Both the position numbers and the translations under genes were made by a program. From contig CAYOKA010000002.1 of the NCBI GenBank assembly GCA_964404395.1, positions 1,497 to 43,851 on the forward strand: DNA of 42,355 bases. The letters run 5' to 3'. Shown one piece after another: positions 74 to 23,647 of the stretch. This stretch comes from an uncultured Oscillospiraceae bacterium. GTDB lineage: Bacteria; Bacillota; Clostridia; Acetivibrionales; DTU013. Every line of letters begins with the position of its first letter. Position 1 is the stretch's first letter. A model generated the notes under the pieces. That model was given only the letters and a program-made list of their open reading frames with translations. It was not told where the DNA came from and made no database searches.

Positions 74-202
74 TTATCGAAGTAAGAGGATCTTGTAAAA
101 GAACAGCAAAAAGGGATATCCCCGAAAATTATAACATGCGGTTACCAGCATCATACGCTTTTCAAGAAACGTCCCCTATGTTATGAGCACTTTTTTCATT
201 TT

Positions 203-2211: not shown

Positions 2212-3348
2212 TCACTTCTCGGCGGGCTTCTCCACGATCTCCTTCTCGGCCTTTTCCTTCTCAGCATTATCTTTTGCCCATTCAGCCGCTTCCCTTATCT
2301 TAGCCTGATGCTTTGGATCAACCTTATTATTATAATGATTCCTGCTATTTAGAAAATGAATATCAAAAACTCCATTCATATTATTGCCTTTAACCGCATC
2401 AAAATTGGTCCCGCGGCTATATCCACCACTCCTTGATGATATTACCTTGTTTGCCTGATACTTATCCATTCCCGCATGAGGATAGCCCGTCATACAAGCA
2501 GCGAGCTCGTAACCGTCCACTTTTACGATTACCGCTCTTCTCTCCCAGCTCCACACACCATTATATATTTCTTTCATAATGGCAGTGTCAGCCTTTGTAA
2601 GGGTCTCGCAATCAGCGTGATTAGAGCCGTAGGTCCTTCTAATATTAAAGCTCTTACCCGTTTCTATGTCATATACAGTGGCATCAGCGCCCCTGCCCCA
2701 AATGTTTTCTACCACACCAAACCACTTCAGCATATAACTATCTTGCTGCTTTTTCTCTATATTATCCTGTTGTGCGGCCGGTGCTTCAACTGTTGCAGCT
2801 TTAACTGCAGTCTTCGGCCCATTACCGCTTATCAAGTCATCGATTAGCCCAAGTGTAGCACTTCCTGCGATTCCATCAGCCAAATATCTATACTTTTTTT
2901 GAAGATTTGTAACCGCTGCTTTGGTCGCCGGCCCATAAAACCCGGTAGCATTTGTGTTAAGATACCCCAACTTAATGAGATTTTTTTGCAATGAAGTAAC
3001 GTAACTATTCTCGTCACCTTCCTGCATCAATTTGGGGTTAGCTGAAGTCGTATTTCGGCCCATTAATCTATCCAGCAACAAAAAAGTTTCTTCCCCTACA
3101 ATTCCGTCAACCTCATATCCATAATCCCTCTGGACTTTTCTGACAGCATTCTCTGTCAAATCTCCGAAATATCCTGTGGCCTCCGACGAAAGATAGCTAA
3201 GCTTTATTAAATCCTTCTGTAAAGCTATTACCTTAGTGCCCTCGCACTCCTTTTTCAGCACGTCAGATGATGCTGAAACAAAAGTCGAACCCAATACCAT
3301 GACAACAGCCATTATTGCTGCAGCACAGATTGTCTTTTTCCGATCCAT
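2212..3348 (-). CDS. Secreted protein with two PG_binding_1-type peptidoglycan-binding repeats and an uncharacterised C-terminal domain
   Basis: It has a signal peptide (MDRKKTICAAAIMAVVMVLGSTFVSA). The repeats are LQKDLIKLSYL...DGIVGEETF and LQKNLIKLGYL...DGIAGSATL. The start is set at 3348 behind the SD GGAAAGGAGAG; the ORF-track start at 3369 is a GTG. Confidence 0.8.
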   Translation of the reverse strand: MDRKKTICAAAIMAVVMVLGSTFVSASSDVLKKECEGTKVIALQKDLIKLSYLSSEATGYFGDLTENAVRKVQRDYGYEVDGIVGEETFLLLDRLMGRNTTSANPKLMQEGDENSYVTSLQKNLIKLGYLNTNATGFYGPATKAAVTNLQKKYRYLADGIAGSATLGLIDDLISGNGPKTAVKAATVEAPAAQQDNIEKKQQDSYMLKWFGVVENIWGRGADATVYDIETGKSFNIRRTYGSNHADCETLTKADTAIMKEIYNGVWSWERRAVIVKVDGYELAACMTGYPHAGMDKYQANKVISSRSGGYSRGTNFDAVKGNNMNGVFDIHFLNSRNHYNNKVDPKHQAKIREAAEWAKDNAEKEKAEKEIVEKPAEK

Positions 3349-3365
3349 ATGTAGCTCTCTCCTTT

Positions 3366-3528
3366 CCACTTACGGGGTTAGCTGGCGGGTTAGGTAGAAG
3401 AGACTGCCCTTTATACCATCATGCAGTATGTGACCTCAGCAGGCTGTAATCAAGTATGAATTCACCCCAATGATAAAAATCCCCCGTTTCCCTATACCTC
3501 TTTATAGGGAATTCAGTGTGCGATGCGG
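3366..3528 (-). promoter_or_regulatory. c-di-AMP riboswitch (ydaO-yuaA class) in the leader of the PG-binding protein gene
   Basis: The minus strand contains ATCGC...ACGGGGGA...TTGGGGTGAATTC...CTAACCCGCCAGCTAACCCCGTAAG. This matches the conserved ydaO core as I recall it (GGGGUGAAUCC ... ACCCGUCAGCUAACCUCGUAAG). It abuts the SD. Confidence 0.75.
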
Positions 3529-5023: not shown

Positions 5024-6460
5024 CTAGTAAGCCTTGCCCCAATACACAAGTGACTTGGCTTCCTTCCCGCAGCATATGCATTTATCGGAAACAGCCTCTT
5101 CATCGAAGGGTACACAGCGTGATGTTGCTCCTGTTTTCTCTTTTATTGTTTCTTCACAGGCGAGGGCTCCGCACCACATTGCCCTTATAAAACCAGGTGC
5201 CTCTCTGATAACCCTCTCAAATTCTGCAAACTCCGTAACTGTACAGGTTTTCTCATCCCTTGATGCAGTCGCCTTGCTCAACATACTATCATGTATGCAA
5301 TCAAGCAGCTCAGGCACCTTCGTCTCAATTTCATCAATCGGAATAAAAATCTTTTCCCCGGTATCCCTTCTTGCAAGCACAACCTGCCCCTTTTCAATAT
5401 CCTTAGGCCCAATTTCGAGCCGAACCGGTACGCCCCTCATTTCATGTTCGCTAAATTTCCAGCCCGGTGACTTATCGGTATCGTCCATCTTCACTCTTAT
5501 GGCACCGGACAATCTATAACAAATCTCAGAAGCCTTTTCAAGAACGCCTTCCTTATGCTGTGATATAGGTATGACAATTACCTGAACCGGTGCGATTCTT
5601 GGCGGTAATACCAGCCCACTGTTATCTCCGTGTACCATTATAATGCCGCCGATTATTCGGGTAGACATGCCCCAGGAGGTCTGATGCACATACTGAAGCT
5701 GATTGGATTTGTCGGCATACTGTATGTCAAATGCTTTGGCGAATCCATCACCGAAATTGTGCGTTGTACCGGATTGAAGTGCCAAACCATTATGCATAAG
5801 CGCTTCTATCGTATAGGTTGACTTTGCCCCTGCAAACTTCTCTTTGTCTGTTTTTTGCCCTTTAATAACCGGAATAGCTAGCACATTTTCGCAGAACTCC
5901 GCATATACATTAAGCATTTTAATTGTCTCTTCCTGAGCTTCCTCATCAGTGGCGTGGGCTGTGTGGCCTTCCTGCCATAGGAATTCGGTCGTCCGCAAAA
6001 ACGGCCTTGTAGTCTTTTCCCATCTAACCACAGAGCACCATTGATTGTAGAGCTTCGGCAGGTCCCTCCATGAGTGGATAACATTGGCATAATGATCGCA
6101 AAAAAGCGTTTCTGATGTCGGTCTTACACAAAGCCTCTCGGCCAGTTTTTCATCGCCACCATGGGTCACCCAGGCTACCTCCGGTGCAAAGCCCTCTACA
6201 TGATCCTTTTCCTTTTGCAGCAATCCTTCGGGAATAAACATCGGCATATAGACATTTTCATGCCCGGTTTTTTTAAATCTCCCGTCCAGCTCCCTTTGAA
6301 TGTTTTCCCAGATAGCATAGCCGTAAGGACGAATAATCATACAGCCTCTCACGCTTGAATAGTCCACCAGATCAGACTTTTTGATGACATCGGTATACCA
6401 TTGTGAAAAATCCTCATCCATAGAAGTAATCTCTTCAACGAATTTTTTATCCTGTGCCAT
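5024..6460 (-). CDS. proS: Prolyl-tRNA synthetase, archaeal/eukaryote-like type
   Basis: It is 478 aa with class II motifs and a C-terminal Cys-rich tail (CVPFDEE...[18 protein letters not shown]). There is no bacterial-type INS editing insertion. Confidence 0.95.
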
Positions 6461-6557: not shown

Positions 6558-6742
6558 ATAAAAACAAACGCCCCTGTATAAACACACAGGGACGAATTTA
6601 ATCCGCGGTACCACCCAATTTGGATAACCCAACTTGTCGAGCCTGTATCGCAGCTCAAACGGCTGTCTCATCGGCAGCATCTCGGGGGTGGGAAGAAAGG
6701 TCAACCCTTTCGCATTCCCGTCATCGACGTCTTCATATATTA
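6558..6742 (-). promoter_or_regulatory. T-box leader with terminator, controlling proS
   Basis: The minus strand carries AAATTGGGTGGTACCGCGG (T-box motif, 6604-6621). It is followed by the terminator CGTCCCTGTgtgtttatACAGGGGCG plus TTTGTTTTT. A CCN-rich stretch (CTTCCCACCCCC) lies upstream, but the specifier codon was not resolved. Confidence 0.85.
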
Positions 6743-6777: not shown

Positions 6778-6792
6778 GAGAGCGAGGGGAGC

Positions 6793-6822
6793 GGGGGGAC
6801 GGATCGGGGGGGACGGTTCTCC
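6793..6822 (+). repeat. Forward copies of the GGGGACGGTTCTCC repeat (one degenerate, one intact)
   Basis: A degenerate copy (GGGGGGACGGATC) lies at 6793-6805 and GGGGACGGTTCTCC at 6809-6822. Confidence 0.9.
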
Positions 6823-6846
6823 TATCTTGCACTCAGAAAAGCAAGT

Positions 6847-6905
6847 GGGAGAACCGTCCCCTTGCTTTGGGAGAACCGTCCCCTTGCTTTGGGAGAACCG
6901 TCCCC
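6847..6905 (-). repeat. Three reverse copies (GGGAGAACCGTCCCC) with a 22 bp period
   Basis: Copies lie at 6847-6861, 6869-6883 and 6891-6905, separated by TTGCTTT spacers. The first copy can pair with 6809-6822 across a 24 nt insert that contains CTTGC...GCAAG. Confidence 0.9.
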
Positions 6906-9947: not shown

Positions 9948-10152
9948 AACAAATCCTCCAAACGAACCATAAAAAGGTACACATTTCACAATCTGCTGTG
10001 ATTTGTCTTTTGTCAGATATCGTTCGGCGAATTTATAGGTATCAGCCTGTTTTCGTCAGAAACGATTAATGAAATACCGAAAAAAATACTTCCCATGCAT
10101 CCATATAATAGAAATTAAGGAAGTCATTTATGCTCTCTTCAACCACTATAAT

Positions 10153-10181
10153 AGTATACACCATAATAATATTCTTGTCAA
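10153..10181 (-). promoter_or_regulatory. Sigma-A-type promoter upstream of carD (leader of about 200 nt)
   Basis: TTGACA (10176-10181), a 17 nt spacer, then TATACT (10153-10158). Confidence 0.7.
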
Positions 10182-10255
10182 AAGCAACTAATTTTGTCGC
10201 GGGCCATTCCCTATAGGCCAGGCATAATGCAGGACAATCAGCCAATATGCCATTA

Positions 10256-12076
10256 TCAAGTGTCAAGATTTATTTCCTCATCTGTGCCATTATCCACCAA
10301 TGCAGCACGGTTTATGCAAATGCTTGCCCCCAGTAATACCCAGAACACCGGTGCCGCCGAAACCGAGCTGTCTGAAAACATTCCGGCTACCAGATACCCG
10401 GGGATAGCAGCATTTATCAGCATCACATAAGTGAAACGATGATATGTAATCCTTTTGTTCTTTACGGTCCCTATACAAGACATAAAAAAGTACGCAAGAA
10501 GACAAATCAGCGAAATAAGTGAAATTACACCAGTGTTAATCGCAGTTTGCAAAAATATACTGTGGGGTTTATCTATAAGTATATTAGCATCATACATAAA
10601 ATTAAGCTTCCCCAGATAATCATCCTGGGGAAAATATATGGCGAAAGTGTCAGGACCATGGCCCAAAAATAATGTGTGCTTTATCAAAGGTATAGATCTT
10701 GACCATATGTATCCTCGCGCGGACGCAAATCGTTCCAGCCCTTTGAATCCAAAGCTTTCAATGGGCAGGACATCAACAACCCTGCCATGAGAATCAAGGG
10801 GTACAAATTCGTCATCAATAACTGCAAAAAGGAGGAATGACTTGTCCTTTACAATATTGATGATATTACCTGATACTTGTATAAAATAGCTGTCATACTT
10901 CTTATTTGTGAAAGTGTGTAAATCGTTGTTTTCTGCAGGCCTTAGCTCCAAAGGATTATCCTCGTCATCAAAAAAGCTAACCTTATTATCGGAAGCCTTT
11001 ATACGAAGCTTACTGAATTCACTATACAGAGTCAGTGTTCTACCTTCCGTCTCAAAATTCCTTACTTTATCCAGCTCGGGACGGATTGATTCTTCTTTTA
11101 TTGTAGAAAAAAAGGAAACGAATCTCTTGTTTAATGCTCCACCACTTTGAAATGACATTAAAACGAAAACAACAATGAAGAAGGAAAAAACGGTCAAAAC
11201 CCTTTTCCACCTTGCCCTATGCTTGAAATATAGCAATATCAATCCAAATAAAACACCAACCGCCGCGGCTGCATATGCCCCTCTTGAATAAGATCCGAGA
11301 AGGCCGGCGAACATCAGGCAGCTGTAGGCTGCAGAGGCCACAATATGAAGCTTCTTTTTTGCTGTCATTGTCAACACGAAGGAAAAGGGGAAAAGCATTG
11401 AAATATACATCCCAAAAGTATTGCTGTTGAAAAGAGTCGCGTATATCGCATTTTCGTAAGGTGTTCCTGCGTAATTGTCAGACCTTATGTTCAAGGCACC
11501 AACAGCTTCACCGGACATAATAAGCTTCTGTACCATTGAGGTTTTGAAAAGGTCCAGCCCACAAAATTGAAAAATTCCAATGAGGCAAATTAGCGTAGAA
11601 GATACAATAAGACAAGCCAGGAGAAGCCTTATGCTTGTTTCGTCATTAAATACATGAAGTGACACAAAAAGTAGCACCATATATGCCAAAATTATGAAGA
11701 TCCCTTCATATCTTCCGGCAAAGCCAAAATAGGCAATATGCTTATATTCAGAAAAGACAGTGGACAAAAGTGCAAATAGTAGAAAAACAATCAGCGGAAT
11801 ATAAATAATTACAGGCTTCGGCTTAATCTTATGGGACAAAAAACCCCAAAGCAGCATGATCACCGCTAAGCTAGCAAAAATTATTAATGCGGCATTCTTA
11901 TAATATGAGAAAAAATCAGCATCAATGTCGCCATGGGGCCAGATCCCAGCTACAGTAGTGTGGACAGGTATCATCTTCTGCTTCACAATGAGAGGTATCA
12001 ACCCTGCTGCCAATGCAACAGGTAATGCAAATATCCATGGTGCTTTTTTCGTAGACAGTTCAGATGCCACCTGCAT
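10256..12076 (-). CDS. O-antigen ligase/polymerase (Wzy_C) family polytopic membrane protein with a large extracytoplasmic loop insertion
   Basis: It has more than 10 hydrophobic segments and the motifs SYSRGAYAAAAVG and GHGPDTF...KPHSIFLQTAINTG. A hydrophilic insert of about 150 aa lies between them. An alternative GTG start lies at 12070. Confidence 0.75.
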   Translation of the reverse strand: MQVASELSTKKAPWIFALPVALAAGLIPLIVKQKMIPVHTTVAGIWPHGDIDADFFSYYKNAALIIFASLAVIMLLWGFLSHKIKPKPVIIYIPLIVFLLFALLSTVFSEYKHIAYFGFAGRYEGIFIILAYMVLLFVSLHVFNDETSIRLLLACLIVSSTLICLIGIFQFCGLDLFKTSMVQKLIMSGEAVGALNIRSDNYAGTPYENAIYATLFNSNTFGMYISMLFPFSFVLTMTAKKKLHIVASAAYSCLMFAGLLGSYSRGAYAAAAVGVLFGLILLYFKHRARWKRVLTVFSFFIVVFVLMSFQSGGALNKRFVSFFSTIKEESIRPELDKVRNFETEGRTLTLYSEFSKLRIKASDNKVSFFDDEDNPLELRPAENNDLHTFTNKKYDSYFIQVSGNIINIVKDKSFLLFAVIDDEFVPLDSHGRVVDVLPIESFGFKGLERFASARGYIWSRSIPLIKHTLFLGHGPDTFAIYFPQDDYLGKLNFMYDANILIDKPHSIFLQTAINTGVISLISLICLLAYFFMSCIGTVKNKRITYHRFTYVMLINAAIPGYLVAGMFSDSSVSAAPVFWVLLGASICINRAALVDNGTDEEINLDT

Positions 12077-12315: not shown

Positions 12316-15207
12316 TTAACCCGCTGGCTCTTCAAGGGTCTTAATTTCTACTGAATTGGAGGATCCTGCGTATTCGCCACCCTCGACAACTAGTCTGAAT
12401 TCATAAGCCGTGTTTGGTGTAAGACCTGTAGCTTTAGCAGTCGTAGACGTTGCATCAAGAGATGATTCAAGAGTAGTGTCAGTCCAGTTACTATCAGCAT
12501 CAGTCCTGTGCTGCACTTTTACTAAATTCGCACCCACAGGAGCCGAGAAACTGAAAGTGGCACTGGTACTGGTAGTATTATTATGCGCAAAGTCGATATA
12601 TTTGATTAAAGTAGTGACATTAACTACATTAGAAATACCTTCCCAGTCTCCACCTGTAACTTCAAGCCTGAACTCATAGCTAGTGTTTGATGCAAGATCT
12701 ATTGCTGTAGCAGATGTGGATGCACAGCCTAAAAGGGTCTCAGGGTCAATTGTAGCTTCAACCCAGGTTTTGCCTCCATCAATCGAATGTTCAATTTTTA
12801 CTGAATCGGCTCCATCAGGTGCACTAAACTTAAAAGTTGCCGTATTACTACTGTATCCATACAAGACAAAATCACTTTTGGGTCCTTTAATTAGTTGATC
12901 GACTCCAGATCTTTCATACCCTAATGCGCAAACATTTATTGAATAATTATTTCCGGTTTCAAACACGCCCTTATTAATTATAATTTTTCCTTCTTGAATT
13001 GTAAACTGAGGCTCCGGATCGTCGAGATTATAATATTTGTTAATATTGCTGTCCGCCCCGCTGCCTGCCCTATGATACACATGTATACTATAAATTGATC
13101 CTCTCCAGTCAGCGTTATCATCAAATTTCAACTCAATATCATTTTTAATATTATTATCAAAAGTATCTGCAGTCAGTTCCGGCGGTGTTAATATAGTGTT
13201 TACGGCTATTACGTTTGATACTCCTTCATTTATACCGCCTATTACATTTAGACTGATTTCATATTCCTTATCTGGACTTAAACCGCTCAAATAGTATTCC
13301 TCTGCAGTTTTGTCAATTGTTTCTACTAGTGTTGTCCATTCCGTTTCTGTCGGCTTTTCCCTATACTGCACTTCAACTGACTCTGCTTCGATTGGGGCCG
13401 TCCAAGTTAATCGGATAGATCCATCATAAGGCGATAATTCCCCCTTGAAATCTGAAACATACTCTACTAGTTTAAGTGAACTACTTACTTTTTCACTTGG
13501 CAGTTTGCGATTTCGATCACCATCACTGTCACCGGAAAGGCTAAATGAAATGTTTCCCGGCTCCGTAGGCATCTGCTTGTCTATTAGCCATAGTGTAAAT
13601 TCAGGTATATTGTCCAGATTCTTGATTGTTACAGTTTTCCCTCCATCGCTTATATTCTCAACTCCATCTAAATTGAGCTGACTGTCAGATGAAATGTAAC
13701 ACATATCGCTTGTCGTTGCAGCTATGCCATCCGGTAAATTAAAGATAACTGTCCCATTAGAAAACCTTTCACCCGGTGTATACTTGATATATAGATCTTT
13801 ATATGCTCCTATTGTGACGATTTCCGTGCCAATATCCAAACTCCCCTTTGCCGTCTTTACAGGTTTCGGAGGTGGCGTTGTGTCCGAAGGCGTTTCGACA
13901 GGCTTTGGTGCATTGTTTATCTTAACGCCGCTAACCATTACAGAAACGTCTTCTCCAATATCTAATTCCTGAGGCCTTGCATCAAGTATCACGTCATCTG
14001 TATTAATCTGTGCGTTTTCTATTCTTGAACCTCCCTTTACCATCACTTCGCTATCGGCAACAAAATTTGCAACACTAGCTGTATTCCCTATAACTATATC
14101 TGTCTTGCTGGTACCTTCCCTGACGTTTATTGTTCCGACAGTGCCGTCAGTAATCTCCGCATTAACATCATCAGCCTGAATGTCTAAGCTTATAAAGTCG
14201 CCATCAAGTGTAATCTGTTGACCGGCTGCAACTCGGATTACCTCAACCCCATTGAATCCATTTCCCGTCAGGTTGCTTTCAACAAGTCTTCCACCGGAAT
14301 TTAAAATGGTATTTTCAATCTCAGTGTTTCCCGAAGCTACAACCCTTACTTTTCCATCCTTTTTAATAATAATCAAACTACCGGTCAAGGCAGTATTGTG
14401 AAGAATGATGCTGTTTTCGCCGCCACCCTTTACAATGGTTCTTCCGGTAATTTTGACATTATCCAGCTTAATATCTCCATCTCCAATTCCCTCGGTAAGA
14501 TAAAGATCGCCATGGATTGTCATATCCTTAAGAATTACATTATCCGTATTAACGACAAGGTTGCCATTAACATCGCCTGTATATGTACCTTCCTTGTTCT
14601 TCAGATCCCCTACGATATTATCTATCATTTTCACGGCTTCTGCTCTGGTAATATTCCTTGTGGGCGCAAAAATATTGCCCGGTAAGCCAGCCATGTACCC
14701 ACAGCCTACAAGGGCATTAACTGCGTCTTTGCTCCACGAAGCTACTTTCCCTGCATCAGCAAACCTCGACAAATTATTCTCCGGATTTGCCTCAATATCA
14801 AATGCCCGCGCAAATACTAAAGCCGCTTCCTGTCTGGTTATGGGGTCATTTGGCCTGAACCGTCCAGCATTGCCGATGAAGTTGCCTGCTTCCGCAGACA
14901 ATGCCACATCATTTGCAAAAGGCATATCAGCTGCTACATCGGAAAATTCAACATCCGACTTCTCCACATAATTAAAAACCTTGCTCAGCAAAATGGCCAT
15001 ATCTACACGTTTAATGGGGTCCGAAGGGTTAAAAGCTCCGCTTTCATCGGTCTGTATAATACCATAGGAGAGCCATTTGCTTATTTCCTTATGTGCCCAG
15101 CTTTTTGAATAATCAGACGCTTGTGTTTGCGATAAAACACTTGTTAGGTTGAAAAGAATAACTAACATAACTACTAAGGCACTAATCAGCCTGAACCATT
15201 TTGTCAT
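12316..15207 (-). CDS. Cell-surface protein: signal peptide, 3 SLH repeats, beta-helix-like region, Pro/Thr linker, DUF1533-like module and 3 FN3-like modules
   Basis: The N-terminus is SLH-like (AFNPSDPIKRVDMAILL, RFRPNDPITRQEAALVFA, FAPTRNITRAEAVKMI). The FN3-like modules end ...YEFRLEVTGG and ...YEFRLVVEGG. The start is set at 15207 behind GAAAGGAAGGA. Confidence 0.85.
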   Translation of the reverse strand: MTKWFRLISALVVMLVILFNLTSVLSQTQASDYSKSWAHKEISKWLSYGIIQTDESGAFNPSDPIKRVDMAILLSKVFNYVEKSDVEFSDVAADMPFANDVALSAEAGNFIGNAGRFRPNDPITRQEAALVFARAFDIEANPENNLSRFADAGKVASWSKDAVNALVGCGYMAGLPGNIFAPTRNITRAEAVKMIDNIVGDLKNKEGTYTGDVNGNLVVNTDNVILKDMTIHGDLYLTEGIGDGDIKLDNVKITGRTIVKGGGENSIILHNTALTGSLIIIKKDGKVRVVASGNTEIENTILNSGGRLVESNLTGNGFNGVEVIRVAAGQQITLDGDFISLDIQADDVNAEITDGTVGTINVREGTSKTDIVIGNTASVANFVADSEVMVKGGSRIENAQINTDDVILDARPQELDIGEDVSVMVSGVKINNAPKPVETPSDTTPPPKPVKTAKGSLDIGTEIVTIGAYKDLYIKYTPGERFSNGTVIFNLPDGIAATTSDMCYISSDSQLNLDGVENISDGGKTVTIKNLDNIPEFTLWLIDKQMPTEPGNISFSLSGDSDGDRNRKLPSEKVSSSLKLVEYVSDFKGELSPYDGSIRLTWTAPIEAESVEVQYREKPTETEWTTLVETIDKTAEEYYLSGLSPDKEYEISLNVIGGINEGVSNVIAVNTILTPPELTADTFDNNIKNDIELKFDDNADWRGSIYSIHVYHRAGSGADSNINKYYNLDDPEPQFTIQEGKIIINKGVFETGNNYSINVCALGYERSGVDQLIKGPKSDFVLYGYSSNTATFKFSAPDGADSVKIEHSIDGGKTWVEATIDPETLLGCASTSATAIDLASNTSYEFRLEVTGGDWEGISNVVNVTTLIKYIDFAHNNTTSTSATFSFSAPVGANLVKVQHRTDADSNWTDTTLESSLDATSTTAKATGLTPNTAYEFRLVVEGGEYAGSSNSVEIKTLEEPAG

Positions 15208-19511: not shown

Positions 19512-19578
19512 CTATCGCATAAATATTTTTTGGTAAAAGGTGCAGAATAATAAAAACCACAGCGATGGAGGTTCCCGG

Positions 19579-20880
19579 ATGAATAATGTTTTGCAAAATC
19601 TATTACTACACATAACCCAACTGATTCAGGTGTTTGTTTTTGTTGCAGGCTGCTATTTTTTTTGCATTTCCTTGCTAGGCTGGAGAAGGCAGAGGAATAA
19701 ATCGGAGGAATACGCTCCCTGCAAAAGATTCGCGCTTGTAATAGCCGCCCATAATGAGGAGCTGGTGATTGGCAATGTCATTGACAGTCTTATGAACCAG
19801 AATTACCCTCGAGAACTATTTGACATTATCGTTGTAGCGGACAACTGCACTGACAGAACCGCTTTAGTTGCCAGAAAGCACGGAGCATTGGTACATAGGC
19901 GGTTTGATGCGGAAAAAACAGGCAAGGGAAACGCCCTTGAATGGATATTTAGCAAGATATACAACGAAAGCGATTGTTATGATGTTGTCAGTGTCTTCGA
20001 TGCAGATAATTTGGTTTCATCTAATTACCTTTATGAAATGAATAGACAGCTATGTAAGGGGTACAAAGTAGTACAGGGATACATCGACAGCAAAAACCCT
20101 TTTGACTCCTGGATCACATGCTCGTATTCTATAGCATTTTGGCTTTCAAATCGGACCTATCAGCTTCCTCGGTTTAATTTGGGGCTGAGCTGTGTTCTCT
20201 GTGGTACAGGCTTTTGCGTAGATTTATCTGTGCTGAAGGAAATCGGGTGGGGAGTAACATGTCTGACAGAAGACCTTGAGTTCACAATGAAGCTGTCGTT
20301 GAACGGAATCAAGGTCGCATGGGCACACGACGCAATTGTATTTGACGAAAAGCCCTTGACTCTCAAGCAGTCCTGGTGTCAAAGAAAAAGATGGATGCAG
20401 GGGCATGCGGACTGCGCCTATAGATATCTTGTGCCCCTATTTAAAAAGGCTTTCGCGGAGCGTAATCTGGCGGTCTTCGACTGTGCCGTGTACCTTTTCC
20501 AACCAATCCGTTTTATTTTCATAGTCTTAATCTCAATTATGCTTCGTGTCCAATCCTTTTATCCCGAAATACCCTTCTTTACAGTGCAACACATTTTACC
20601 GGCACTTGTTTGGCATGTATTTGTACTACTACAGTTTCTATATGGCCCTGTGGTGGTGCTATCAGAAAATAAGTTTGATCTGCGCATACTACTGGGATTT
20701 ATCGCCTACCCATTTTATTGCTTTACCTGGATTCCTATCACAATACAAGGCTTCCTCAGCAAGGACAACAAGGTCTGGAGTCATACCATACACACACGCG
20801 AAATAAAAATAGAGGATCTGGAGAAAACGCGCAGCTCTCAAGCCCCTCCTCCCCGCCCCGAAGCCTCCCGCTACCAGTAA
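19579..20880 (+). CDS. Membrane-embedded processive family-2 glycosyltransferase (synthase-like)
   Basis: It has an N-terminal TM segment, DADN (DxD), TED, QRKRW (QxxRW), and C-terminal TM segments. The start is set at 19579 behind GGAGG. The Pro-rich GC-rich tail abuts the repeat array. Confidence 0.8.
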   Translation: MNNVLQNLLLHITQLIQVFVFVAGCYFFCISLLGWRRQRNKSEEYAPCKRFALVIAAHNEELVIGNVIDSLMNQNYPRELFDIIVVADNCTDRTALVARKHGALVHRRFDAEKTGKGNALEWIFSKIYNESDCYDVVSVFDADNLVSSNYLYEMNRQLCKGYKVVQGYIDSKNPFDSWITCSYSIAFWLSNRTYQLPRFNLGLSCVLCGTGFCVDLSVLKEIGWGVTCLTEDLEFTMKLSLNGIKVAWAHDAIVFDEKPLTLKQSWCQRKRWMQGHADCAYRYLVPLFKKAFAERNLAVFDCAVYLFQPIRFIFIVLISIMLRVQSFYPEIPFFTVQHILPALVWHVFVLLQFLYGPVVVLSENKFDLRILLGFIAYPFYCFTWIPITIQGFLSKDNKVWSHTIHTREIKIEDLEKTRSSQAPPPRPEASRYQ

Positions 20881-20887
20881 CGTGGGA

Positions 20888-21018
20888 GGGGACAGGGGAC
20901 GGTTCTCCCAAAACAGGGGGACGGTTCTCCCAAAACGAGGAGAGCAAAGAGGGGACGGTTCTCCCAAAACGAGGAGAGCAAAGAGGGGACGGTTCTCCCG
21001 GCGAAGGGGACGGTTCTT
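20888..21018 (+). repeat. Array of five forward GGGGACGGTTCTCC(C) copies
   Basis: Copies start at 20895, 20917, 20951, 20985 and 21006, giving spacings of 22, 34, 34 and 21 bp. The 34 bp unit GGGGACGGTTCTCCCAAAACGAGGAGAGCAAAGA occurs twice. Confidence 0.9.
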
Positions 21019-21029
21019 GATAAACTGCG

Positions 21030-21066
21030 AAAAGAGCAAAAAAGGGGCAGTCCTTTTTCACCTGCC
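21030..21066 (-). terminator. Probable clpC terminator
   Basis: The minus strand reads GGCAGgtgaaaaaggaCTGCC plus CCTTTTTTGCTCTTTT. Confidence 0.5.
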
Positions 21067-21160
21067 AAAGAACTACCCTTATTTGGTCCTCTTATTTGGG
21101 TTCCTTATTCTATTGCATATTCTAATCATTCACTTAATCTTTTTTATCATATTAAGGGCA

Positions 21161-23647
21161 CTATTCATGCACCTCGGGAGAACCGTCCCCCTGCTTCACG
21201 GGAGAACCGTCCCCCTCCCCTTTTACGGTAAATTCCAGCTTATCGCCCGCAAGCACTACGCTCACGGTATTGCCCGGTTTCACCCTGCCTTCCAGCATTT
21301 CCTCGGCCAGCTTATCCTCTATCATGCTCTGTATATATCTCCTCAGTGGCCTTGCTCCAAAAACGGGATCATAGCCCTTTTTCGCAATATAGTCCTTGGC
21401 CTCATCATTTACTCCCAGACTAATTGAATTCTGACCAAGTCTCTTTACAAGTACATTAATCATAATGCCAACAATGTCTCTGATATTATCTTCATCCAAC
21501 GGATGAAATACAATAATGTCATCTACCCTGTTTAGGAATTCAGGGCGGAAGGCCTTTTTCAGCTCTCCCATAACATTGCTCTTCATATCCTCATAGTTCT
21601 TTGCCGAATCATCCTCAGTCAGGAACCCCAATCGCTTCGGCTCAGTAATCATTCTTCCGCCGACGTTTGAAGTCATTATGATAACAGTATTCCTAAAATC
21701 TACAACTCTACCCTGAGAATCCGTCAACCTACCGTCCTCCAGTATCTGAAGCAAAATGTTGAAAACATCGGGATGAGCCTTCTCTATCTCATCAAACAGC
21801 AGTACTGAATATGGCTTGCTTCTGACCTTATCGGTAAGCTGCCCACCTTCTTCATATCCTACATAGCCGGGGGGCGAGCCTATTAACCTGGATACAGCGA
21901 ACTTCTCCATGTATTCGGACATATCTATGCGTATCATTGCATTCTCGTTGCCGAATAACGCTTCCGCCAATGCCTTACTCAATTCTGTCTTACCAACGCC
22001 TGTAGGACCGAGGAATATAAAAGAACCGGTCGGCCTTTTAGGATCCTTTAATCCTACCCGGCCTCTCCTGATTGCCTTCGATACGGCCTTTACCGCTTCA
22101 TCCTGTCCGATGACTCTCTCATGGAGCACATCCTCCATTCTCATCAGCCTCTCCGATTCCTCTTCAGCAAGCCGTTTCACAGGTATACCGGTCCAGCCTG
22201 CAACAATGTCGGCAATCTCATCCTCTGTAACAGTGTCTGTTCTTGTCTGGTTATTCTGGTACCATTCGCCCTTCACTTTCTCGTGCTCTGCCCTAAGCTT
22301 TTGCTCCTGATCCCTTATACCTGCAGCCTTTTCAAACTCCTGCCTCCTTATGGCATCTTCCTTTTCCTTGGCGAGTCTTTCCAGCTGATCCTCCAGCTGC
22401 TTTATATCGGGGGGTGCTGTAAATGCTTTCAACCTTACCTTTGAGGCAGCTTCATCCATCAAATCTATTGCCTTGTCCGGAAGATATCTGTCAGTAATGT
22501 ATCTGGCAGAAAATCTGGTCGCCGCTTCCAAAGCCTCATCCGTTATTTTCACACCATGATGGGCTTCATACTTGTCACGGATGCCCTTCAATATCTCAAT
22601 GGTTTCCTCCTGGGTGGGTTCACCGACTGTAATCGGCTGGAATCTGCGTTCCAGTGCAGCATCCTTCTCAACATACTTATGATACTCATTGATTGTAGTT
22701 GCACCGATTACCTGTATCTCTCCCCTGGCAAGTGCAGGCTTGAGAATATTTGAGGCATCAATAGCACCTTCAGCTGCTCCCGCACCAATAATCGTATGCA
22801 TTTCATCTATGAACAGAATTACATTTCCAGCCTTCCTGACCTCATCCAGCGCCTTTTTCAGCCTTTCTTCGAATTCGCCTCTGTATTTTGCTCCTGCAAC
22901 CATAGAAGAAAGATCCAATGAAAACACTCTCTTATCCTTCAGCATTTCCGGGATATTAGCTTCAACAATCTTTTGCGCAAGGCCTTCGGCAATTGCTGTC
23001 TTCCCCACTCCCGGTTCACCTATGAGGCATGGATTGTTCTTCGTCCTCCTGCTGAGTATCTGGATAACTCTCTCAATCTCCTTATCGCGCCCTATAATTG
23101 GATCAAATTTGGCCTCCCTGGCCATTTCCGTCAGGTCTCGCCCAAATTGATTCAGCGTAGGAGTATTCGTTTGACTCGAGGCGCTTTTAGGCGTACCGCT
23201 TGCAGTAGGTGTATCTTCATTTAGCATTTTAACAATATCACTAAACAGCTTCTGCGGTTCAATACCCAAGTCTATCAATATCCGAACAGCAACGCTTTCT
23301 CCCTCTCTCATAATGCCCAAAAGGAGATGCTCTGTCCCAATATAATTGTGCCCAAGCCGTCTGGCCTCCACCAAGGCTAATTCAAGCACCCTTTTTGTCC
23401 TCGGCGTAAAATCAAGGGGCTTTTTTTCATCATTGTCACCCCTACCTATCAATTCATCTATCTCACGGATTACTTTTTCCTCTGTAACTCCCTGTCCCTG
23501 CAGAACACGCGCTGCGATACCGGTGCCCTCCTTTAGAAGCCCCAACAACAAATGCTCCGTACCCACATAACTGTGTCTGAGCCCCATTGCGTTTTCCTGA
23601 GATAGATTTATAGCTTTCTCTGCTTTTTCAGTAAATCTCCCATACAT
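21161..23647 (-). CDS. clpC: ATP-dependent Clp protease ATP-binding subunit ClpC
   Basis: It has two Clp_N repeats, two AAA+ modules (GEPGVGKTA and GPTGVGKTE) and a UVR linker. The C-terminal tail GEGDGSPVKQGDGSPEVHE is repeat-encoded. Confidence 0.95.
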   Translation of the reverse strand: MYGRFTEKAEKAINLSQENAMGLRHSYVGTEHLLLGLLKEGTGIAARVLQGQGVTEEKVIREIDELIGRGDNDEKKPLDFTPRTKRVLELALVEARRLGHNYIGTEHLLLGIMREGESVAVRILIDLGIEPQKLFSDIVKMLNEDTPTASGTPKSASSQTNTPTLNQFGRDLTEMAREAKFDPIIGRDKEIERVIQILSRRTKNNPCLIGEPGVGKTAIAEGLAQKIVEANIPEMLKDKRVFSLDLSSMVAGAKYRGEFEERLKKALDEVRKAGNVILFIDEMHTIIGAGAAEGAIDASNILKPALARGEIQVIGATTINEYHKYVEKDAALERRFQPITVGEPTQEETIEILKGIRDKYEAHHGVKITDEALEAATRFSARYITDRYLPDKAIDLMDEAASKVRLKAFTAPPDIKQLEDQLERLAKEKEDAIRRQEFEKAAGIRDQEQKLRAEHEKVKGEWYQNNQTRTDTVTEDEIADIVAGWTGIPVKRLAEEESERLMRMEDVLHERVIGQDEAVKAVSKAIRRGRVGLKDPKRPTGSFIFLGPTGVGKTELSKALAEALFGNENAMIRIDMSEYMEKFAVSRLIGSPPGYVGYEEGGQLTDKVRSKPYSVLLFDEIEKAHPDVFNILLQILEDGRLTDSQGRVVDFRNTVIIMTSNVGGRMITEPKRLGFLTEDDSAKNYEDMKSNVMGELKKAFRPEFLNRVDDIIVFHPLDEDNIRDIVGIMINVLVKRLGQNSISLGVNDEAKDYIAKKGYDPVFGARPLRRYIQSMIEDKLAEEMLEGRVKPGNTVSVVLAGDKLEFTVKGEGDGSPVKQGDGSPEVHE
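21176..21214 (-). repeat. Two reverse copies (GGGAGAACCGTCCCC) lying inside the 3' end of the clpC ORF
   Basis: Copies lie at 21176-21190 and 21200-21214. Each encodes GDGSP in the clpC frame. Confidence 0.9.

Follow-up and report, generated by a model that had tools for sequence, protein, structure and literature searches.

Facing Arrays of a Short Dispersed Repeat in an Uncultured Oscillospiraceae Bacterium: Probable REP/REPIN-Like Elements of a TIRYT-Type Y1 Transposase

Repeat Arrays in the Window

The window analyzed here is a stretch of 42,355 nucleotides from an uncultured Oscillospiraceae bacterium (contig CAYOKA010000002.1, positions 1,497 to 43,851), and the subject of this report is a short repeat, GGGGACGGTTCT(CCC), which forms two arrays facing each other between a gene for a glycosyltransferase (19540-20880, + strand) and clpC (21161-23647, - strand, stop codon at 21161-21163). 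The repeat occurs 18 times in the window, always within one of three clusters, and the surroundings consist of chromosomal housekeeping genes (ctsR-mcsAB-clpC, proS, and ispDF). Allowing for up to two mismatches, the 15-mer is matched 13 times versus 0.02 matches expected by chance, and the 12-mer 18 times versus 1.57 expected, a number that was attained in none of 100 shuffled sequences. An earlier note on this DNA (the original prediction) had described the core as conserved to the base, which holds over 15 nt for 9 of the 18 copies, whereas the remaining ones end in G instead of C, as in the cluster at 4-218, or are degenerate.

At the glycosyltransferase-clpC locus, a truncated copy (GGGGACAG, 20887-20894, +), read directly from the sequence, lies 7 nt past the glycosyltransferase stop codon and abuts the first full copy. 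Four exact forward copies of GGGGACGGTTCTCCC follow at 20895-20909, 20917-20931 (22 bp past the first), 20951-20965, and 20985-20999, the third one starting a 34-bp unit composed of the core and AAAACGAGGAGAGCAAAGA and the fourth continuing at a period of 34. The fifth predicted forward copy (21006-21017, +) retains only the 12-mer GGGGACGGTTCT (= GGGGACGGTTCTtg), its 3' end having diverged to tg. The periods within 20895-21017 are therefore 22, 34, 34, and 21 bp, and Tandem Repeats Finder reports a period of 34 with 2.4 copies and 100% matches for this array. The two predicted reverse-complement copies are both exact (21176-21190 and 21200-21214, - strand, period 24 bp); however, only the forward set is intergenic as had been assumed, while both reverse copies lie inside the reading frame of clpC, where each codes for GDGSP within the last codons. 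The arrays are separated by 158 bp (21018-21175), close to the original estimate of about 157 bp. This segment comprises the rest of the intergenic DNA of the convergent gene pair together with the clpC stop codon and contains a weak hairpin with flanking A and T runs at about 21038-21058; a terminator and promoter scan of the locus gave nothing above the expectation from shuffled sequences. The equivalent segment of a related contig (L211) differs in both sequence and length; the segment is not a conserved cargo.

The forward-then-reverse layout recurs at the two other loci, as had been predicted. Cluster 1 contains four forward copies starting at 4, 22, 40, and 58 (to 72, period 18 bp), the last of which is the variant GGGGACAGTTCTC, and its array extends into the window edge; two degenerate reverse copies follow at 165-176 (GGGGACGTTTCT) and 206-218 (GGGGACAGTTCTC), with orthologous copies in the related contig L124. 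Cluster 2 is located between the T-box leader of proS and ispF, between divergent promoters, and consists of a degenerate forward copy (GGGGACGGATCG, 6795-6806), a full forward copy (6809-6823), and three exact reverse copies at 6847, 6869, and 6891 (to 6905, period 22 bp), with the spacer AAAGCAA being complementary to TTGCTTT beyond the innermost copy. The gap between the facing arrays is 26 bp at this locus, compared with about 133 and 158 bp at cluster 1 and the clpC locus, respectively, which are at the long end of the range in the family. The proposed likeness between the internal segments of the latter two loci comes down to one A-rich stretch of 19 nt (local alignment score of 22 versus 15.8 +/- 2.2 for shuffled sequences, with 6 of 300 shuffles scoring as well), a marginal similarity without any shared cargo.

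Variation Among Relatives and the ClpC Tail

The comparison with relatives that the original prediction had proposed shows copies varying in number at all three loci. Contigs from digester metagenomes with about 80% DNA identity contain copies at the orthologous loci 1 and 2, but in other numbers and with different spacers. At locus 2, these relatives carry an additional five-gene block of 5.4 kb between the repeat cluster and the proS leader (L124, 4160-9620), which codes for a GerE-type regulator, SLH-domain proteins, and others and is absent from the window (6780-6810), so that the position of the repeat cluster coincides exactly with the breakpoint of an indel or rearrangement. At the clpC locus, a relative whose ClpC is 92% identical has three to four copies on the clpC side and two on the glycosyltransferase side, versus two and five in the window, and a relative with a ClpC of 86% identity has no copies at this locus. 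As a separate observation, the inter-array segment of locus 1 is well conserved in relatives (window 90-200 versus L124 17560-17680) and includes the degenerate reverse copy at 165-176 (- strand) as well as the palindrome GGGATATCCC; this segment may represent a promoter, a terminator, or a small RNA.

The reverse array at clpC also affects the encoded protein. Homology to ClpC of Bacillus subtilis stops at ...LEFTVK, and the last 17-19 codons of the window gene (GEGDGSPVKQGDGSPEVHE, 21161-21217, - strand) are encoded by the two reverse copies. GDGS tails of one or two units are found only in the closest ClpC relatives (at least 91% identity) and are absent from the other 114 ClpC homologs among the matches listed (at most 88% identity). 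These patterns suggest that the arrays are lineage-specific insertions which expand and contract quickly, and that the reverse array has probably invaded the last codons of clpC, adding a short GDGSP-containing tail.

Distribution of the Repeat Family

A scan of a genome collection with one genome per species, in which two tandem cores (two exact 14-mers) were required, revealed no fewer than 119 such loci. They come from more than 60 assemblies, which belong to Bacillota, Actinomycetota, and a small number of other phyla. Among the matches listed, most loci belong to Clostridia (Lachnospiraceae, Oscillospiraceae, Syntrophomonadaceae, Desulfotomaculaceae, and others), and single cases occur in a relative of Bacillus, in Treponema (L027), in an Omnitrophota assembly (L093), and in a contig of 2.4 kb binned as Methanobacterium (L075), which may be mis-binned. 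Actinomycete assemblies with arrays number at least 13 (Micropruina, Propionicimonas, and Amycolatopsis).

In the same set of listed matches, the arrays contain up to 10 copies with locus-specific periods, which peak at 18, 20, 22, 23, and 30-36 bp, and the spacing is perfectly regular in 62 of the 93 arrays with at least three copies. Neighboring arrays are convergent in 73 cases and divergent in 8, which makes the facing layout a trait of the family; the gaps between them mostly measure 9-65 bp within a whole range of 2-196 bp. The clusters lie outside of open reading frames in 86 of the 96 low-GC cases listed and are somewhat enriched between convergent genes (10 of 39 versus 28 of 214 in the background), while their orientation relative to transcription is unbiased (41 sense versus 36 antisense). 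Phages or plasmids as vectors for a spread across phyla were considered and ruled out by the respective counts: an array was present in one of 2.9 million viral contigs, and homologs of the associated transposase described below were present in 33 of 72,556 plasmid records, most of them from megaplasmids or chromids. In essence, this is a chromosomal system.

Hairpin Structure of the Repeat Unit

The bases beside the core are not conserved, yet they are mutually complementary: flanks pairing over at least 5 bp were found in 163 of 575 copies, compared with about 12 expected. The structure was tested on 103 isolated, non-redundant copies in a register in which position -1 pairs with core position 14, position -2 with +1, and so onward. 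The five core-proximal pairs are formed in about 80% of the units, and each of them occurs in at least four pair types, with 32-51 double-sided changes. At 0.374, the score for covariation exceeds that of shuffled sequences (0.168 +/- 0.010, none of 500 being as high) as well as those of slid registers (0.12-0.21), and 71.5% of the cells in isolated units are paired versus 58.7% in shuffles. The unit is thus a hairpin with an invariant apex of 12-14 nt, GGGGACGGTTCT(CC), and a basal stem of 5-7 bp, the sequence of which changes from genome to genome while its pairing is preserved.

Units in tight arrays lack this stem, one arm of which is represented by the spacer. A metagenome-assembled genome of an Oscillospiraceae species (L012, L057, L064, L072, L098, L104, and L109) contains tight arrays with a period of 20 bp, in which the spacer is GCAAC(C) in some cases and the complementary GTTG(T)C in others, a pattern that would result if one or the other arm of an ancestral stem had been duplicated along with the core. 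A general rule for arrays by which the spacer would pair with the distal flank gave no signal.

A hairpin between genes may also be read as an element acting in RNA, i.e., as a terminator, a stabilizer of mRNA 3' ends, or a protein sponge, whose spread would reflect selection for that role. Many isolated hairpins are indeed located between an A run and a subsequent T run, folding of the facing arrays is strong (z = -7.9 and -6.9), and E. coli REP (repetitive extragenic palindromic) sequences are known to affect termination and mRNA decay (PMC2817692); the enrichment between convergent genes fits as well. However, the clusters favor neither strand with respect to the flanking genes, locus 2 is placed between divergent promoters, and the terminator scan at the clpC locus was unconvincing. 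Moreover, the arrays match no known RNA model, as no Rfam family was hit even at E <= 1, and the link to a transposase would be left unexplained. We therefore regard a primary role in RNA as very unlikely and consider it at most a secondary, co-opted effect.

An Associated Y1 Transposase

The original prediction had suggested looking for a RAYT-type Y1 transposase, and such an enzyme was found in related genomes. The genes between widely spaced facing arrays (L064, L002, L067, and L118) were discarded as candidates, as they represent unrelated cargo (GNAT acetyltransferases, an esterase, a macro domain protein, and an AraC regulator) and include no transposase. In an actinomycete (L113), however, an open reading frame of 267 amino acids between facing arrays contains the HUH and Tyr motifs of IS200-like Y1 transposases, and tblastn detected homologs directly against arrays at four further loci from other genomes (L055, L074, L048, and L003). 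In total, 5 of the 119 listed loci, from five genomes, have a Y1 gene abutting or bracketed by arrays.

The associated protein is an IS200-like Y1 HUH protein of 250-270 amino acids with a C-terminal helix-turn-helix (HTH) tail. Pfam Y1_Tnp is matched with E values of 1e-13 to 1e-19, and the NCBIfam model 'REP-associated tyrosine transposase' with 79.8 bits at a cut-off of 80; in a set of 23 proteins, all match Y1_Tnp. In the alignment, the N-H-x-H motif, the tyrosine in RYIHQNP, and the C-terminal HTH motif G-STRQ-R-TG-S are invariant or nearly so, and the tail gives weak HTH matches, all below the Pfam cut-offs (HTH_23 in 15, HTH_24 in 12, and HTH_28 in 3 of the 23 proteins). A search of the PDB with a single RAYT sequence returned no match, whereas a profile search yielded a single sequence match, the E. 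coli TnpA-REP (4ER8, E value 3e-5). The same structure is the best Foldseek match (E value 5.7e-8, TM score 0.74) of an AlphaFold model (pLDDT 89.6) with a helical tail at residues 195-252, and the IS200, IS608, and ISDra2 transposases rank behind it. As judged from the conserved HUH and Tyr residues and the fold likeness to 4ER8, we infer that the array-flanked protein would cleave and rejoin the folded single-stranded repeat. The family comprises more than 7,700 proteins at E <= 1e-10, which are named RayT or REP-associated tyrosine transposase in their sources.

Because the first sample had been selected by the repeat, loci were also chosen by the protein. In three isolate genomes, related cores are present on both sides of the transposase gene: Candidatus Syntrophocurvum alkaliphilum has GGGGACGGTTCTTT on both sides and 15 copies within 20 kb, most of them in clean inverted doublets; in Petroclostridium sp. 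X23, the upstream copy reads GGGGACGGTTCTGG and the downstream one AGGGACGGTTCTTA; and in Clostridium aceticum, both flanks carry the variant GGGGACGGGGTTGC. Among these loci, clean doublets are found in L122. Another 80 metagenomic loci were retrieved by protein alignment, and both flanks could be counted for 63 of them. In 37 of these 63 loci, the 300 nt upstream of the gene contain the motif GGGGACRG on the coding strand, versus one on the other strand; on the downstream side, 36 loci have it on the opposite strand, versus six on the same strand; 25 loci show both the upstream and the downstream copy as expected. In most cases, the start codon follows the start of the proximal upstream copy at a distance of 59-76 nt. 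Among the core classes, GGGGACGGTTCT is the most frequent, including beside proteins sharing only 36-43% identity with the query, and GGGGACGGGGTTGT and GGGGACAGGT represent distinct other classes. In 22 of the 37 loci with an upstream copy, this copy abuts or merges into a TTGACA-like -35 box, with a plausible -10 box in 13 (e.g., L122 9937-10000, L121 9934-10000, L140, L141, L146, L186, and others), which suggests that the transposase may regulate its own expression by binding there.

This arrangement also bears on the idea that the arrays are primarily duplex binding sites of an iteron- or operator-like kind, recognized by the HTH tail of a RAYT-like protein or by another DNA-binding protein and serving regulation, chromosome structuring, or the handling of replication forks rather than mobile DNA. 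Apart from the conserved C-terminal HTH of the enzyme family and the possible autoregulation via the upstream copy, this is favored by the invariance of the 12-nt core even in tight arrays, where single units form no stem of their own, and by array periods clustering at 18-23 bp, which corresponds to about two helical turns. On the other hand, the covarying stems of isolated copies point to a folded single strand as the selected form, the convergent bias of 73 versus 8 fits hairpin doublets, and the GGGG[AT][CG]A[CG] motif is unlike DnaA boxes (Quentin et al., 2018; PMC6006769). Plasmid iterons and partition-site arrays do share direct repeats recurring about every 20-22 bp and sometimes inverted copies with the arrays described here, but the latter are chromosomal and dispersed over many loci in ordinary intergenic DNA, with no replicon genes such as rep or par nearby. 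Duplex binding as the primary role appears unlikely on this basis, although binding by the HTH tail is plausible as a second activity of a RAYT-like transposase acting on hairpins. The iteron-like sites of the original prediction are thus retained only as a secondary property, their context being unlike that of a replicon origin.

The recurrent neighbor gene likewise argues against a foldback miniature inverted-repeat transposable element (MITE) of a classical (DDE) transposon or a degenerate CRISPR-like array, which inverted terminal arrays around an internal segment and regularly spaced short repeats might bring to mind. The only gene found recurrently next to the arrays codes for a Y1 HUH transposase rather than a DDE enzyme or a Cas protein. 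In addition, the internal segments are unrelated between loci and the distance between facing arrays varies from 2 to 196 bp, so that the constant internal segment expected of a foldback MITE is missing. CRISPR arrays consist of repeats of 24-48 bp with unique spacers and associated cas genes, whereas the present core measures 12-15 nt, the spacers within an array are identical, and the neighborhoods examined contain no cas-like open reading frames, in agreement with the original rejection of a CRISPR. Either alternative has to be considered highly improbable.

Interpretation and Relation to Known Systems

Taken together, the inverted core copies flanking RAYT-like genes, the predominance of facing copies, and the hairpins with covarying stems support the REP/REPIN/BIME-like part of the earlier three-way interpretation, in which the foldback MITE finds no support. 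The arrays are likely to be non-autonomous REP/REPIN-like repeats of an HUH Y1 transposase with an HTH tail, resembling the TIRYT or TnpA-Y1 subclass 2.1 enzymes and encoded elsewhere in the genome. The family accordingly belongs to a known class of junk-like bacterial repeats with a domesticated transposase of the single-strand DNA type and is not a new kind of system. For the window alone, it is an ordinary repeat.

By architecture, the closest described systems are the TIRtrons. Di Nocera, De Gregorio, and Rocco (2013; PMC3733652) reported RAYT-like 'TIRYT' genes flanked by inverted repeats sharing the motif GGGGWSAS, which in a few species are also scattered as dimers and clusters, and Quentin et al. 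(2018; PMC6006769) equated TIRYT with TnpA-Y1 subclass 2.1, which is present in 14.9% of strains and carries an HTH tail of the type Bac_DnaA_C, HTH_23, or HTH_28. These two papers are the only ones in the searchable literature that use the term TIRYT. The present system shares with them the RAYT-like Y1 HUH protein with a C-terminal HTH tail, the bracketing of its gene by inverted repeats at a roughly fixed distance, and the presence of the repeats at other genomic sites, where they are single or grouped into dimers and clusters. The variant GGGGACAG from the window fits GGGGWSAS exactly, and the dominant GGGGACGG is off at one position (G for A). It should be noted that our placement in subclass 2.1 is based on domain architecture and the flanking motif, not on the phylogeny of these authors. 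The published examples come from Proteobacteria, Acidobacteria, and similar groups, with Firmicutes and Actinobacteria unmentioned in either paper, and neither of them describes the core GGGGACGGTTCT(CC), the covarying stem, head-to-tail arrays of up to 10 copies, or the convergent bias. A full-text literature search likewise returned no paper with the core sequence in a relevant context, nor did its distribution in Gram-positive bacteria turn up there. The earlier statement that no such family had been described is hence supported by this search for the exact core, but does not hold for the class.

The REP/REPIN-RAYT systems of Gammaproteobacteria (Nunvar, 2010; Bertels and Rainey, 2011; Ton-Hoang, 2012; 4ER8) are similar in having short extragenic hairpins, commonly as inverted doublets, a Y1 gene flanked by inverted copies, whose product TnpA-REP is the closest solved relative of our protein, differences in copy number from strain to strain, and occasional in-frame intrusions into gene ends. 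The family described here differs from them in lacking a GTAG/GTGG foot, in its unchanged recurrence across phyla, and in an enzyme that is about 100 amino acids longer and has an HTH tail. While canonical REPs have a stem that is conserved within a genome and differs between species, it is the apex that is invariant in the present family and the stem that varies. BIME-2 of E. coli represents another case of tandemly reiterated, REP-containing intergenic units which are often found at the 3' ends of genes, but BIMEs alternate Y and Z orientations with defined linkers, whereas the present arrays run head-to-tail with a second array facing the first.

Several points weigh against this assignment. 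As originally noted, the window contains no transposase: tblastn with 120 members of the RAYT family gave a best E value of 0.09. The cognate enzyme is known from related genomes and is presumed for the window copies. Most of these copies are arranged in tight arrays and have no basal stem of their own, except for the innermost copy at 6847, so that the hairpin model rests on isolated copies of other genomes. No conserved GTAG/GTGG tetranucleotide was found at the hairpin foot among the core-flanking positions examined, and Quentin et al. found no REP-like sequences for subclass 2.1 (PMC6006769). Selection by two exact 14-mers accounts for part of the apparent invariance of the core, a bias for which the protein-first sample corrects, as it returned GGGGACGGTTCT as the commonest class beside others such as GGGGACGGGGTTGT and GGGGACAGGT. 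Finally, cleavage, mobility, and array growth are all inferred, with the biochemistry of E. coli TnpA-REP and IS200/IS605 TnpA (PMC8266576) serving as the base from which binding, cleavage, and mobility are extrapolated.

By analogy to these enzymes, the transposase would bind the folded single strand, e.g., on the lagging-strand template, and cleave and rejoin it beside the hairpin, which would spread the doublets. In-register cleavage and rejoining, or replication slippage between neighboring copies, might then duplicate a unit of one stem arm plus the core, giving rise to head-to-tail arrays with a spacer specific to each locus. As a more speculative extension, which we regard as possible but rather doubtful, the repeats may represent the repeat family that has so far been missing for TnpA-Y1 subclass 2.1 (TIRYT), the second largest of these subclasses. 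In that case, an ancient and mostly chromosomal system would have kept the 12-nt apex GGGGACGGTTCT invariant across Bacillota, Actinomycetota, and beyond, while the enzyme diverged to about 35% identity, and only the stem would drift; the enzyme would generate in-register head-to-tail arrays and regulate its own promoter via the upstream copy. Such a system would add a second, mechanistically distinct mode of REP recognition, based on a sequence-specific apex instead of a foot tetranucleotide plus stem.

REP/REPIN-RAYT systems have been studied almost only in Proteobacteria, where RAYTs have mainly been described (Nunvar, 2010; Bertels, 2017); Group 1 of Bertels (2017) reaches Clostridia, but with only about 12 flanking 16-mers, and surveys of the HTH-tailed Y1 subclass have yielded either loose GGGGWSAS terminal inverted repeats or no partner repeat. 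If the proposed relationship is correct, it would extend REPIN-like biology to Gram-positive anaerobes and actinomycetes. The sharply defined, widely shared core with its covarying stem would provide a concrete substrate for cleavage, strand transfer, and binding assays with the HTH-tailed Y1 subclass. The repeats would also explain common contig breaks and spurious or extended open reading frames in metagenome-assembled genomes, such as GDGSP, GRFS, and GTVL peptides or a longer ClpC.

Further Observations

Arrays are often found less than about 100 bp from a true contig end (L007, L028, L034, L039, L045, L061, L075, L080, L084, and L111), and the window itself starts inside an array (1-72), which is consistent with the repeats breaking short-read assemblies. 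Open reading frames reading through arrays were observed in several contigs (L064 2147-2401, L002 2211-3179, L067 3336-3577, and others), and the resulting spurious or extended proteins show repeating GTVL, GRFS, and GDGS (or ENRP, RTVP, and EPSP) peptides.

With regard to the transposase genes, one from the same digester metagenome as the relatives of the window (L144) was considered as a candidate for the cognate RAYT, but was rejected because its GC content is 38% compared with 44%; it probably belongs to another organism. Petroclostridium sp. X23 (L121) harbors two transposase genes (10001-10759 and 14372-15130) at a distance of 4.4 kb, each adjoining fragments of AgrB and histidine kinase genes and the same flanking repeats. 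The pair looks like a segmental duplication, which is unusual for the supposedly single-copy RAYTs. In L113, a perfectly matching DnaA box (TTATCCACA, 2378-2386) and a nearly identical sequence (TCATCCACA) are located upstream of the RAYT-like gene (2349-2386); published work has compared the C-terminal tail of this protein family to DnaA domain IV.

Two RNA elements were found in the window apart from the repeats. The T-box leader upstream of proS (5024-6460) extends over 6585-6733 (- strand) and scores 43 bits (E value 3e-7), well below the Rfam gathering score of 93, so that a default scan misses it. A c-di-AMP (ydaO/yuaA) riboswitch at 3352-3528 (- strand, 63 bits) precedes an open reading frame of 385 amino acids (2212-3369), the ortholog of which in relatives contains a peptidoglycan-binding domain.

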